DNA from: Escherichia phage PHB12
Sequence record: MK524178.1
DNA: 64,000 nucleotides
Reading direction: 5' to 3' (one strand)
In this document: positions 4,762 through 58,309 of the stretch, one piece after another
How the letters are laid out: each line of letters begins with the position of its first letter
Numbering within the stretch: the stretch's first letter is position 1
Made by a program: the position numbers and the translations under genes
Notes under the pieces: model-generated
The model's input: the letters and a program-made list of their open reading frames with translations, nothing else
Databases searched by the model: none
What the model was told of the DNA's origin: nothing

Positions 4762-4787
4762 ATTATTCTCCTCTGGTTGATATGGGT

Positions 4788-4816
4788 ATAATATCAAAAC
4801 CAGAGGAGAAGTAAAC
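4788..4816 (-). promoter_or_regulatory. early promoter (-35 GTTTAC, 17-bp spacer, -10 TATTAT) nested in 11-bp inverted repeat
   Basis: Minus strand GTTTAC-ttctcctctggttttga-TATTAT; arms 4768-4778 and 4798-4808, downstream arm carries the RBS GAGGAG. Confidence 0.55.
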
Positions 4817-4820
4817 AACT

Positions 4821-5240
4821 TTATGCGAAAGCAGCTGGGGTATATTTTTTAATTTGGAATTCAGGAACTACCATGAACTGACCAGCGAAAACGATGTTAT
4901 AAAGCTTAACACCATCTTCAACCCATTGGTCGCTGATAAATCCGGCGATTTGCTTAGTTTTCCACGGTGTTCCATCAGTTGCCGCAGCAATAGTGAATTC
5001 ATGGTCTTTTTCAACAGAAACTGATCTGCATAGTCCCCATTTGAACGCTTTTTCTTCTGGTTCAATGAATTGGCTTGAGACGTAGCCAATATTACCATTA
5101 GCATCACGAACTTTAACTTGGTTACGACCAAAAACCGGATCACTCACAGAAAGAACTTCAACCAACTTCCCGGCAACTTTAGAGCGAGAAGCAACAGATA
5201 CATATACGTAATCACCTGTAGAGAGATTTACAATATTCAT
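4821..5240 (-). CDS. hypothetical protein, member 1 of tandem paralogue family
   Basis: C-terminal FISDQWVEDGVKLYNIVF shared with the next two genes; N-terminal SVASRSKVAGKLVEV shared with 5250..5705. Confidence 0.5.
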   Translation of the reverse strand: MNIVNLSTGDYVYVSVASRSKVAGKLVEVLSVSDPVFGRNQVKVRDANGNIGYVSSQFIEPEEKAFKWGLCRSVSVEKDHEFTIAAATDGTPWKTKQIAGFISDQWVEDGVKLYNIVFAGQFMVVPEFQIKKYTPAAFA

Positions 5241-16957: not shown

Positions 16958-16983
16958 TTTGTTCTCCAGTAGTTGATAGGTCT

Positions 16984-17012
16984 ATAATAACACAACTACT
17001 GGAGAAGTAAAC
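16984..17012 (-). promoter_or_regulatory. early promoter (GTTTAC / TATTAT) nested in 12-bp inverted repeat
   Basis: Arms ctccagtagttg (16964-16975) and caactactggag (16993-17004); downstream arm contains the RBS. Confidence 0.55.
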
Positions 17013-17387
17013 TTAAAAATGTAATTTAGATATATCTGCGTTGATTTCGTTTTGGTTTGCGTCATATGCAATTAAACGAACCGCTTTAGATGGGTCATTC
17101 AATGCATAGAAATGATGGAACATTGCTCGAACGATATCACCATTTACGAGTTTTACCTGGATAGGAGAACCTTTTTCGAGTTGGAAATGTTCATAAGCTT
17201 TGATGGTTCGCAGATAATCAAGTTTTTGATTTCCGGCTCCAACAATTTGTACGATACGTTTGCCCATGTTTTCCATACGAGATACAATAGTTTTAGGAGC
17301 AAGAATAACATAGGTTGCCAGCGGAGAATCTACTTCAACAGTTGTGTTTTCGGTGATTGCAGTAAAAATTGCTTGAGACATATTCAT
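17013..17387 (-). CDS. hypothetical protein
   Basis: 124-aa ORF with promoter at about 17417-17446. Confidence 0.45.
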   Translation of the reverse strand: MNMSQAIFTAITENTTVEVDSPLATYVILAPKTIVSRMENMGKRIVQIVGAGNQKLDYLRTIKAYEHFQLEKGSPIQVKLVNGDIVRAMFHHFYALNDPSKAVRLIAYDANQNEINADISKLHF

Positions 17388-53385: not shown

Positions 53386-53619
53386 CTACCGATTGTGTTT
53401 TAAATGTTGATAAAGCTCTTCAACTTGTTTAGGGTCCAAAACAATTAAGTCATTTTCTTGGCGAAGATAAATCCATCCCTTATCCCCAGGACCATTTTTA
53501 CAAAACATCACCACCGTATCATCATCTTCAGCGCTTTCAGGTAAAAGTTCAAGTACACCGTCTTCAGATTTTCCAGTATAATCGTAAAGCATAATGACCT
53601 CACATAATCTCGTTAACAT
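53386..53619 (-). CDS. hypothetical protein
   Basis: 77-aa ORF. Confidence 0.35.
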   Translation of the reverse strand: MLTRLCEVIMLYDYTGKSEDGVLELLPESAEDDDTVVMFCKNGPGDKGWIYLRQENDLIVLDPKQVEELYQHLKHNR

Positions 53620-53779
53620 ACATTTGCAATTCGGTGTGGGCAGATGCCATCTTTTTCATTGCCTTATTGATATCGATATCACCGTCTTCACACCCGTGGG
53701 CATTTTCCCAATCGGATACAGCGTTAGCGTACTCTTCAATCAAAAACATTAACTTAGAAATTTTTTCTTTACGTGACAT
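53600..53779 (-). CDS. hypothetical protein
   Basis: Start at MSRKEKISKL after GAGGAG. Confidence 0.35.
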   Translation of the reverse strand: MSRKEKISKLMFLIEEYANAVSDWENAHGCEDGDIDINKAMKKMASAHTELQMYVNEIM

Positions 53780-53806
53780 AACGTTCTCCTCTAGTAAGTA
53801 AGGTCT

Positions 53807-53835
53807 ACTATAACACAACCTGAGGAGAAGTAAAC
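53807..53835 (-). promoter_or_regulatory. early promoter (GTTTAC / TATAGT) flanked by CTCCTC/GAGGAG repeat
   Basis: GTTTACttctcctcaggttgtgtTATAGT; 6-bp arms at about 53786-53791 and 53822-53827. Confidence 0.5.
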
Positions 53836-53845
53836 TGCTAAATGC

Positions 53846-53874
53846 AAAAAAAGCCCCAACCTTTCGGAAGGGGC
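53846..53874 (-). terminator. rho-independent terminator, repeat copy 1
   Basis: aaaaaaaGCCCCaaCCtttcGGaaGGGGC on plus; U-run on minus strand after hairpin. Confidence 0.65.
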
Positions 53875-53879
53875 TTTGA

Positions 53880-54437
53880 TTAGTTTTTGTAATATCGTAA
53901 AGGGTTGATATGGAATGAAAGCATTGCGCGTGGAATAGGACGACTCAAAAGACTCTTAAGTTTCCAACCACAATAAACACGCAGATAAAATGTAATACCA
54001 CCAACCTTAAGATAAGGTATAGCAGCGAATAATCCCCATGCAGACTCGTTCCAAACTAAAAGATATCCATGATGTGCCGGATCAGGAGATCCAGATTTAG
54101 TTTCGGCGTTGCCTTTATAGTGCCATTCTGATGAAGCTTCGCGACCTAAAACATGATACGAAAAATTATATGCTTTGTTGCGCCATAGCCAAGCTACGCG
54201 TTGAGCATATTTACCTATAACAGGAATTTTACGTATTTTAGACCAACGTTCAACATGGCCGCGGTCACCATCGATAGGATTATCGTAAGTCATCATCCAG
54301 TCAAAGCCATAAGGTAGTTTACCGGTTTTTTCACTATGGAATGGAACTACAAATGGTGCTAGAATAATTGCTAAAATCGCTGCGATCCAATCTATAGGAA
54401 CAAGAACAACCCAACTTATATATTTTAAAAATTTCAT
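53880..54437 (-). CDS. membrane protein with late promoter (rI.-1 position)
   Basis: 185 aa, N-terminal TM helix; TATAAATA upstream; bracketed by two identical terminator hairpins. Confidence 0.5.
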   Translation of the reverse strand: MKFLKYISWVVLVPIDWIAAILAIILAPFVVPFHSEKTGKLPYGFDWMMTYDNPIDGDRGHVERWSKIRKIPVIGKYAQRVAWLWRNKAYNFSYHVLGREASSEWHYKGNAETKSGSPDPAHHGYLLVWNESAWGLFAAIPYLKVGGITFYLRVYCGWKLKSLLSRPIPRAMLSFHINPLRYYKN

Positions 54438-54461
54438 ATATCCTCTCTTAGTTTACAAGGA

Positions 54462-54469
54462 TATTTATA
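54462..54469 (-). promoter_or_regulatory. late promoter TATAAATA upstream of 53880..54437
   Basis: gTATAAATAtccttgtaaactaagagaggatatATG. Confidence 0.55.
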
Positions 54470-54470
54470 C

Positions 54471-54497
54471 AAAAAGCCCCAACCTTTCGGAAGGGGC
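54471..54497 (-). terminator. rho-independent terminator, repeat copy 2 (identical)
   Basis: aaaaaGCCCCaacctttcggaaGGGGC, identical to 53848-53874, directly after rI. Confidence 0.65.
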
Positions 54498-54504
54498 AGG
54501 TAAA

Positions 54505-54807
54505 TTAGATAGATGTAGGCTCTAATTTTATTTTCATGAACTCGGCAAATTGTCTGGCAGTTTTTATGCCTTGTTCATGACATTCAAATGCATCATCACA
54601 GGGGCTATTTTTGTAATGCTTTACCATATACTTATAGAATTTTTCAGAATTCTCGACATTTTGAATTTCAAACAAAGTATATACGTTTTTAATCCCTGAT
54701 TCCATAAAGTTATCAAAATATGGGTCGGTATACGCAGTGCCAACGATAGGAGTTGTTGCTGCAAAAAACCCCAGCATCGCCACAATGGCTATCGCTCTTA
54801 AGGCCAT
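54505..54807 (-). CDS. rI: lysis inhibition protein RI
   Basis: 100 aa; signal anchor MALRAIAIVAMLG, FMESGI..VY.LFE, YKN.PC...FEC match T4 RI. Confidence 0.8.
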   Translation of the reverse strand: MALRAIAIVAMLGFFAATTPIVGTAYTDPYFDNFMESGIKNVYTLFEIQNVENSEKFYKYMVKHYKNSPCDDAFECHEQGIKTARQFAEFMKIKLEPTSI

Positions 54808-54819
54808 ATAGGCCTCCTG

Positions 54820-55032
54820 TTAATTTTGGCCAGTATTTATTTTTCGCCTTTGGACGGCCTTAACATCTGCGAGGTATTTTTCCAGCTTACGCTTACGAGT
54901 ATAATCTGCTTTAGAACCGGTTTGACGGATATCCTCATTTAAATGAGAAATAGAATGTCCTAATTCTCTTCGGATTTCATCCAATTGGGTTACAGTAAGA
55001 TTACGAAGTTGTCTTTCGTTTAATTGCTGCAT
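54820..55032 (-). CDS. hypothetical protein
   Basis: 70 aa; TATAAATA late promoter upstream. Confidence 0.4.
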
Positions 55033-55056: not shown

Positions 55057-55064
55057 TATTTATA
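55057..55064 (-). promoter_or_regulatory. late promoter TATAAATA upstream of 54820..55032
   Basis: gttaTAAATActaatatctaaccaagaggtatatATG. Confidence 0.5.
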
Positions 55065-55641
55065 ACAACCCTGTCAAATCATTCCAATGCTTCCGGCATA
55101 ATGACACATATCTATCGGTGTCACCAATTTCAATTTGACTGCCATCTGTAATTGGAAGTCCGTCTTCAGTGACTCTAGCTACCATTGTGGCCTTTTTACC
55201 ACAATGACAGACACCTTTAAGTTCAACAAGCTTATCGGCAATAGCCATTAATGCTTGAGAACCTTCAAATAGATTACCTTTAAAATCTGTTCGTAGTCCA
55301 TATGCCATTACCGGCACATTGTATACGTCAACAATACGACTAAGTTGATACACCTTTTCAGTAGTTAAGAACTGAGCTTCGTCAACAAATACACAATGAA
55401 TATCCTTTTGTGCTGCAGCCCATTTATAGAATTCAAAGATATCCATGTCTTTTGTAATTATATTGGCGTCCTGACGAATACCAATACGAGAGACTATTTC
55501 ACCTTTTGAATCGCGAGTATCAATAGCCGGTTTAAGAACTAATACACCCATGCCACGTTCTTTATAGTTATGTGCGGCAGTAAGTAATGAAGCAGACTTA
55601 CCAGCGTTCATAGCGGCATATGTAAAAATTAAACTAGCCAT
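55060..55641 (-). CDS. tk: thymidine kinase
   Basis: 193 aa; MASLIFTYAAMNAGKSASLL P-loop, CHCGKKA zinc site; matches T4 Tk. Confidence 0.9.
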   Translation of the reverse strand: MASLIFTYAAMNAGKSASLLTAAHNYKERGMGVLVLKPAIDTRDSKGEIVSRIGIRQDANIITKDMDIFEFYKWAAAQKDIHCVFVDEAQFLTTEKVYQLSRIVDVYNVPVMAYGLRTDFKGNLFEGSQALMAIADKLVELKGVCHCGKKATMVARVTEDGLPITDGSQIEIGDTDRYVSLCRKHWNDLTGLL

Positions 55642-58032: not shown

Positions 58033-58060
58033 TTTGATTTCTCCTCTAGTTGACAGGTCT

Positions 58061-58089
58061 ATAGTAACACAACTAGAGGAGAAGTAAAC
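58061..58089 (-). promoter_or_regulatory. early promoter for regB (GTTTAC / TACTAT) nested in 12-bp inverted repeat
   Basis: Arms ctcctctagttg (58041-58052) and caactagaggag (58070-58081); downstream arm holds the RBS GAGGAG. Confidence 0.55.
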
Positions 58090-58093
58090 TACT

Positions 58094-58309
58094 TTATTGA
58101 TAAAATGGAGTTAAAGCCCAAGATTCTTTAGATACCATGTTGGCGAAATGCCTCATCTCTTCGATTTGGCGACGACGCTGGTCAGCATAGTCTTCTTCGC
58201 CTTCTTCCTTACAATCTTCAAGGTCTTCTTCAAGATACTTTAAGTATTCACTACAAATTTTGTTGACCTTTTCTTGAAAGTCCAATAACCCAGTAATAGT
58301 AGAAGCCAT
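58094..58309 (-). CDS. hypothetical acidic protein
   Basis: 71-aa ORF. Confidence 0.35.
   Translation of the reverse strand: MASTITGLLDFQEKVNKICSEYLKYLEEDLEDCKEEGEEDYADQRRRQIEEMRHFANMVSKESWALTPFYQ

Follow-up and report, generated by a model that had tools for sequence, protein, structure and literature searches.

Layout of the locus downstream of rI

Within the 64,000-nucleotide stretch of Escherichia phage PHB12 (MK524178.1) analyzed here, hereafter referred to as the window, the region downstream of the antiholin gene rI contains a 623-bp unit in which a gene of the DUF7338 family is bracketed by two identical copies of a short hairpin sequence. The window belongs to a virulent, Mosigvirus-type T4-like phage of the Straboviridae, and the genes at this locus are encoded on the minus strand. 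The repeat, AAAAAGCCCCAACCTTTCGGAAGGGGC, is present in two exact copies at positions 53848-53874 and 54471-54497, while no further copy with up to three mismatches was found in the window and none of 100 dinucleotide-preserving shuffles contained a match, which places the chance expectation at about zero. The repeated sequence is exactly 27 nt long, as the bases bordering the two copies differ. Read on the coding strand, both copies have the sequence GCCCCUUCCGAAAGGUUGGGGC, with five (upstream copy) or seven (downstream copy) U residues behind it, and form a GC-clamped stem that is interrupted by a 2x2 U/U internal loop and capped by a GAAA tetraloop. Folding energies were -15.1 kcal/mol for the upstream copy (z = -3.2 relative to shuffles) and -18.2 kcal/mol for the downstream copy (z = -4.0), and both have the appearance of an intrinsic terminator, a hairpin with a U-run. 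Because of the 2x2 internal loop both were overlooked by a terminator scanner, while folding reveals them clearly. Rfam offered no family for the hairpins or the region, and the sole match, IsrM, was discarded as noise (15 bits versus a gathering score of 376).

Reading along the minus strand, the locus begins with tk (55060..55641), the last codons and stop of which are overlapped by a perfect T4-type late promoter motif, TATAAATA (55064-55057). A Shine-Dalgarno sequence and the ATG of a 70-aa rI.1-like open reading frame (ORF; 54820..55032) follow, and then the rI gene itself (54505..54807; 100 aa; PF24205 Antiholin, 1.2e-23), which is annotated as rI in relatives. Next is the upstream repeat copy (54471..54497), consisting of the hairpin (54497-54476) and its U5 run (54475-54471). 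A single G separates this U-run from another perfect TATAAATA octamer (54469-54462), located 24 nt before the ATG of the DUF7338/phrog_2143 gene (53880..54437; 185 aa; hereafter the cargo gene), with the Shine-Dalgarno sequence GAGAGGA (54441..54447) within this interval. The cargo gene is followed by the downstream hairpin (53874-53853) and its U7 run (53852-53846), a feature of 53846..53874 that includes the 27-nt copy. Beyond it lie an early-type sigma-70 promoter, GTTTAC-N17-(TG)TATAGT (53807..53835; reported by the promoter scan as TTTACT-16-TATAGT with TG at 53834-53807), which is a member of an eight-copy family of near-identical early promoters in the window (family D3), and the 60-aa DUF7438 gene (53600..53782).

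The window contains five perfect TATAAATA motifs, every one of them on the minus (coding) strand and none on the plus strand. The copy in front of the cargo gene has the arrangement of a T4-type late unit, with the octamer at about -10, no -35 element, and a Shine-Dalgarno sequence and ATG behind it. On the basis of the sequence and established T4 biology, late transcription from the promoter at 55064 would cover the rI.1-like ORF and rI and end at the first hairpin, so that rI would have a late unit of its own. The gp55-type promoter immediately after the U-run would begin a separate late DUF7338 mRNA that the second hairpin would end, and the sigma-70 early promoter 3' of this hairpin would drive the DUF7438 gene. 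The original prediction had described a late gene with a perfect late promoter between identical 27-bp hairpins, forming a self-contained promoter-gene-terminator unit, and this layout was recovered in full at the sequence level: a 623-bp cassette, located at the rI terminator, with a predicted late promoter, the DUF7338 gene and a putative terminator hairpin.

Presence and absence in close relatives

A 1271-bp query spanning the locus matched 158 records with at least 90% identity. The full locus with two hairpins was present in 22 of these roughly 158 records, and all sampled others gave a two-piece match spanning 647-648 bp, corresponding to 1271 minus 623. Fifteen loci were read base by base. 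The eight carriers among them (the window, FL18, TH58, LF82-4, NHEP29, ESh27, AV109 and PTK) had two hairpins spaced 623-624 bp apart, while in the seven non-carriers (SF, SQ17, L010, moskry, Mizar, HY126 and JS09) the rI stop was followed by a single hairpin and then by the same sequence as in the carriers, with rI and DUF7438 as adjacent genes and the early promoter between them. L010 is an IMG/VR contig of 120,938 bp with this Mosigvirus-type empty site (tk-rI-hairpin-DUF7438). The original prediction had proposed such a comparison between the repeats, and the pattern that would have spoken against it, a gene carried by all relatives together with a single hairpin, was not observed. It had also suggested that the hairpins insulate the cassette gene from rI transcription. 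The upstream hairpin is present with or without the cassette and so was not added for insulation; it is best described as the predicted resident terminator of rI.

The hairpin stems were identical across the 15 loci, and the differences were confined to the loops. Carriers exhibited GAAA loops in both copies, with the exception of a single G-to-T change in AV109. Among the non-carriers three loops were GAAA (SF, SQ17 and L010), three were TTAT and one was TTAC. Neighbor-joining trees of the upstream (1.1 kb) and downstream (0.8 kb) flanks both interleaved carriers and non-carriers, which rules out a clonal origin of the carriers; on both trees the carrier TH58 was sister to JS09, the non-carrier with the TTAC loop. 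Presence of the unit in 22 independent genomes likewise rules out an assembly artefact. In PTK the upstream hairpin is preceded by the five bases that otherwise precede the downstream copy (CTAATCAAA, hairpin and T5 on both sides), extending the repeat to 36 nt, a footprint of gene conversion between the two hairpin copies.

Additional length differences were observed nearby. Relative to the window, the interval from DUF7438 to the next shared gene is about 265 bp longer in TH58 (L003) and JS09 (L143), where it holds additional small ORFs, and some 60 bp are missing from it in AV109. The whole mobD-like region downstream of rI is rich in indels.

The unit at other loci and in other genera

A tblastn search with the cargo protein matched 553 phage records, 22 of them with at least 95% identity, corresponding to the Mosigvirus carriers, and the remainder with no more than 77%. 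Outside of Mosigvirus the DUF7338 gene was found in or beside tRNA clusters, as in Gelderlandvirus STP4-a, Pseudotevenvirus RB16, Karamvirus PG7 (L145) and Dhakavirus MX01, and in Felixounavirus (L007, bumzen) it is located inside the tRNA array. The position in or by tRNA clusters was recurrent in Felixounavirus and several T4-like genera (L005, L006, L007, L144 and L145), which could reflect a functional link or regions that tolerate insertions; the window itself contains no tRNA genes. The Av-05 record gave a match with 57% identity, the level seen for Felixounavirus, and may be a mixed or partial assembly.

T4 has what we read as a different gene, rI.-1, at the position downstream of rI. 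It resembles the cargo gene in its place within the variable stretch and in the stem-loop and early-type promoter that follow, but its start lies within the end of rI, across the stop codon, and neither a hairpin or terminator nor a late promoter separates the two. This reading as a different gene is based on the length of the product (128 versus 185 aa) and on the lack of a T4 match among those listed in the cargo tblastn search. With this apparently unrelated gene in T4 and the DUF7338 gene in tRNA regions in the other genera examined, the rI-adjacent position of the cassette appears to be derived.

The most informative second locus is that of Dhakavirus MX01, where the DUF7338 gene occupies the tRNA.3/e.8 region at the end of the tRNA/rnaC-rnaD cluster. 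Here, too, two identical hairpins (GGCCCTTCCGAAAGGTTGGGCC) bracket the gene at a distance of 623 bp; TTTTTTGTATAAATAT follows the first hairpin, with the same T-run and GTATAAATAT as in the window, and the second hairpin is followed by an early promoter (GTTTAC-N17-TACTAT). Compared to the window both MX01 hairpins contain two differences that make up one compensatory pair, C2:G21 to G2:C21. Identity between the two loci changes abruptly at the hairpins: the 60 nt upstream of hairpin 1 are unrelated (39% identity), hairpin 1 matches at 20 of 22 positions and the T-run with the late promoter at 15 of 17, followed by the rest of the 5' untranslated region (56%), the coding sequence (72%), hairpin 2 (20 of 22) and its T-run (8 of 8), while the next 60 nt are again unrelated (36%). 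The homologous unit therefore extends from hairpin to hairpin.

The junction of hairpin, T-run and (G)TATAAATA was also found in MX01, Dhakavirus dhaeg and the contigs L016 and L083. In dhaeg the MX01-type hairpin and TTTTTTGTATAAATA precede a different gene of 207 aa and a different terminator, and in the Gaprivervirus-type contigs L014-L016 other ORFs are present as cargo behind the same hairpin and late promoter junction. Other Gaprivervirus-type contigs (L004 and L008) exhibited hairpin, late promoter and DUF7338, with L011 as the matching Gaprivervirus-type empty site; in DK-13 and L008 the identical 22-nt hairpin, T-run and ATAAAT(A) are present 5' of the gene and another terminator 3' of it. 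Two 168-kb T4-type contigs (L083 3019-3597 and L120 871-1451) contain 31-nt hairpin repeats, CTTAGCCCCGACCGAAAGGTTGGGGCTTTTT, that flank TATAAATA and a 157-aa ORF (MKSYTQFLNEAV...). Since the gene 3' of this cassette is a paralog (MKTYAEFLTEAAK...), the arrangement in these contigs may instead have arisen when a hairpin-promoter-gene unit was duplicated in tandem.

In the Dhaka- and Gapriverviruses the sequence 5' of the hairpin corresponds to the region annotated rnaD/rnaC in T4-type records, and the hairpin closes the tRNA/stable-RNA cluster. A conserved module of about 50 nt (AACACTTGCCTAGCAGGTGGAACCCCGACAAGG...) was noticeable 5' of the hairpin in Dhaka-, Gapriver- and Tequatrovirus-type genomes, after tRNA-like sequence (L144 1380-1437 and L146 415-473; also upstream of the hairpin in L011, L015, L016 and L083); no Rfam model matched it at the gathering threshold.

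Probable gain and loss of the cassette

We consider it likely that this 623-bp gene cassette has been gained and lost at the rI terminator in a subset of Mosigvirus-type phages, with the two identical hairpins as the apparent joints of the insertion, one on each side of the cargo. That the step itself proceeds by recombination on the hairpin homology is a reading we favor by a lesser degree, only somewhat above even. The cargo gene is the only ORF of at least 60 aa within the 623 bp, so that the unit cannot encode an enzyme of its own. Judging from the comparative evidence, the general homologous recombination of the phage would act on the shared hairpin, T-run and adjacent promoter. An exchange between the 27-36-nt direct repeats would delete the unit and could release it as a 623-bp circle, while the reverse reaction, or a double crossover within hairpin and promoter homology during co-infection, would insert it at any locus with the same hairpin.

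An unlikely alternative is that the cassette is ancestral at rI and that the polymorphism reflects repeated loss between the 27-nt repeats, with neither insertion nor mobility. Repeats of this size in direct orientation are well-known substrates for deletion, the carriers are scattered on the flank trees as recurrent loss would have them, and the non-carriers with GAAA loops look like the expected deletion product. The other four of the seven sampled non-carriers, though, have TTAT or TTAC loops and are not deletion products, because recombination of GAAA with GAAA cannot yield them. Nor does an ancestral cassette agree with the unrelated rI.-1 and missing hairpin in T4, with the location of the gene at the tRNA region rather than beside rI in every other genus examined, or with the same 623-bp unit bounded by hairpins at the second locus in MX01. 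Loss between the repeats probably contributes to the GAAA-type empty sites. Duplication of the hairpin as a target site, by a transposase, a homing endonuclease or a structure-specific nuclease acting on the hairpin in place of general recombination, is in our estimate improbable. Such target copying would yield pairs like those found, where both copies are the resident variant of the genus (C2:G21 in Mosigvirus, G2:C21 in Dhakavirus), the T4 region downstream of rI contains mobD-named ORFs, and these phages often carry homing endonucleases (PMC4122927). The identity of the two copies is, however, also accounted for by gene conversion of the PTK type; an enzyme gene would not fit into the 623-bp unit, the 27-36-nt duplications have variable ends (27 nt for the window, 36 nt for PTK, runs of T5 to T7) unlike target duplications of fixed length, and the Gaprivervirus cargo has the hairpin on one side only. 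The least credible account, to which we give next to no weight, holds that two independently optimized terminators converged in sequence around an ordinary resident gene that was never inserted. The design GCCCC-NN-CCGAAAGG-NN-GGGGC is indeed common, with at least 120 matches in viral contigs and a T-run behind 108 of 127, but the exact identity over 27 nt includes the unpaired UU/UU internal loop and the tetraloop and has a chance expectation of about zero. Convergence also leaves the precise one-hairpin empty site in most relatives and the hairpin-bounded homology with MX01 unaccounted for, and collapse of the repeats during assembly is unlikely in well over 100 independent assemblies with a unique 623-bp insert.

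Several observations weigh against gain and loss through the hairpins. A stretch of 27 nt is short for homologous recombination in T4, the efficiency of which drops steeply below about 50 bp. The non-carriers with GAAA loops fit the ancestral state and a deletion product equally well, and the absence of DUF7338 from non-carrier Mosigviruses was read at the rI locus, to which the non-carrier status refers. The closest cargo genes outside Mosigvirus share only about 72% DNA identity, too little to reconstruct the founding insertion or its polarity. The occurrence of both hairpin copies as the resident type of each genus is what a target-duplicating mechanism would also produce, and because the hairpin design is so common in viral contigs, its recurrence at different loci could in part reflect selection for a good terminator instead of mobility.

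Comparison with known systems

The closest parallel to the cassette is found in the promoter-early stem-loop (PeSL) cassettes of T4-like phages (Arbiol, Comeau & Krisch 2010, PMC2839356; Comeau et al. 2014, PMC4122927). In RB49/phi1, recombination between flanking stem-loop/promoter motifs deletes ORFs and the resulting mini-circles were shown experimentally (PMC2839356), and in other pairs of T4-like phages exchange points coincide with PeSL motifs (PMC4122927). In the PeSLs as in the present cassette a terminator stem-loop fused to a promoter flanks small non-essential ORFs in variable regions, the end-points of indels between close relatives lie within the motif, and loss and gain are explained without a dedicated recombinase. 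The locus described here has the predicted stem-loop terminator on the coding strand (-15 to -18 kcal/mol, U5-U7 tail) as well as the precise presence or absence of 623 bp with one hairpin left behind, and the cargo is swapped between MX01 and dhaeg. The downstream hairpin together with GTTTAC-N17-TATAGT, ahead of the DUF7438 gene, is a PeSL by consensus. In contrast, the 5' junction of the cassette combines the hairpin with a late gp55-type TATAAATA in place of a sigma-70 early promoter. Further differences are that only hairpin and T-run are repeated here, that circles are known for PeSLs while the cassette is known from its sequence, and that the same unit is present at two unrelated loci in two genera.

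Late promoters are not mentioned in either of the two PeSL studies (PMC2839356, PMC4122927). We tentatively propose, with confidence slightly short of even, that composites of terminator hairpin and late promoter are an undescribed late counterpart of the PeSL and serve as portable, integrase-free docking sites, that the 623-bp unit moved between the terminator of the tRNA/rnaC-rnaD cluster in Dhaka- and Gapriverviruses and the rI terminator in Mosigviruses, and that other late cargo is exchanged at the same sites. Gene swapping at shared regulatory motifs has already been described for early-promoter motifs, and the new part would be the late-promoter junction. The PeSL concept would then include late as well as early transcription units, and genes acquired in this manner would plug directly into the late program. 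The cassette is mechanistically unsurprising to T4 specialists, is well supported by comparative data, lends itself to experiments and provides a clean natural example of gain and loss of an accessory gene in virulent T4-like phages without dedicated recombinases, with carriers, precise empty sites, a second locus, other cargo at the junction and one gene-conversion footprint all available.

The direct repeats around the unit had been taken by the original prediction as a moron-like signature. In keeping with the definition of morons summarized in Nolan et al. 2006 (PMC1524935), the cassette places an ORF that has a predicted promoter and terminator of its own between genes that are adjacent in related phages. 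The likeness ends with this architecture, because the GC content is not anomalous and the phage is virulent. The GC content of the cassette coding sequence (0.385) is close to that of the window (0.370 +/- 0.021) and is equaled or exceeded in 26% of windows of the same size, and the GC content at third codon positions (0.26) is like that of tk, which rules out a compositionally foreign cassette. The cassette also differs from morons in its late lytic promoter, with no expression from a prophage, and in cargo that comes from the gene pool of T4-like phages and Felixounavirus instead of the host. Shuffling of regulatory cassettes of the PeSL type (PMC2839356, PMC4122927) fits better than a moron.

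The cassette further resembles segments lost by deletion between short direct repeats in that 27-36-nt repeats bracket a segment that is precisely absent from relatives, with one copy left. Studies of T4 rII reportedly include deletions of this kind. They were described for E. coli as well (Albertini et al. 1982, as cited in PMC4122927). Here, however, the repeat is a regulatory element and the segment a complete expression unit that occurs elsewhere as well, which implies gain in addition to loss. An analogy between such cassettes and integron attC sites was drawn by Arbiol et al. (PMC2839356), and the small single-gene unit, its structured and imperfectly palindromic boundary, insertion at matching sites and possible circles agree with it. 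Unlike integron cassettes, the unit carries its own promoter, no integrase is present or needed in the proposed model, and the hairpin is a predicted transcription terminator and, as far as known, not a recombinase substrate.

The cargo protein

The cargo ORF encodes a genuine member of Pfam family DUF7338 (PF24027; E = 5e-62; 209 bits versus a gathering cut-off of 27), matching over its full length (residues 1-184), and of phrog_2143 (4e-79). Its single hydrophobic segment is N-terminal, and the charge bias weakly favors an N-in/C-out topology. In an alignment of 28 family members T50, D52, G57, H61, R64, W65, WLWRN83-87, Y90, G98, R153, GWK157-159 and M172 were invariant, and the polar residues conserved in the family are suggestive of an enzymatic role or of a specific binding site. 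The AlphaFold model (predicted local distance difference test score 93.8, predicted template modeling score 0.83) consists of a long N-terminal helix (residues 2-33), short helices and an antiparallel sheet, the latter parts forming a conserved alpha/beta domain. No solved structure with a resembling fold was found in a fold search of the PDB, structural relatives in BFVD are uncharacterized, and PADLOC and NCBIfam gave no match. The designation as a holin in some public records (e.g. UPEC03, vB_Si_35FD, HMD-P10 and vB_CbrM_HP1) is unsupported, as searches of family libraries and folds revealed no similarity to described holins at either level. We regard the cargo as a probable type II inner-membrane protein that is produced late in infection, and our best guess, held with low confidence, is an envelope-facing accessory function. 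The family merits functional attention: in T4-like phages and Felixounavirus it is widespread and well conserved, its members are predicted late membrane proteins, and their fold is modeled with confidence and has no counterpart among solved structures.

The early promoter downstream of the cassette

At 53780-53846 on the minus strand, the spacer between the -35 and -10 elements of the early promoter (TTCTCCTC) can pair with the sequence around the Shine-Dalgarno site of the gene that follows (GAGGAGAA), to which it is complementary. RNA that reads through from upstream folds at -17.1 kcal/mol with the Shine-Dalgarno sequence buried, while the transcript of the early promoter itself folds at -2.0 kcal/mol and leaves it free. 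This arrangement is similar to a known T4 device that ties translation to the promoter used, and the same inverted repeat is present in several members of the early-promoter repeat families of the window (4766-4824, 16962-17020 and 58039-58097).

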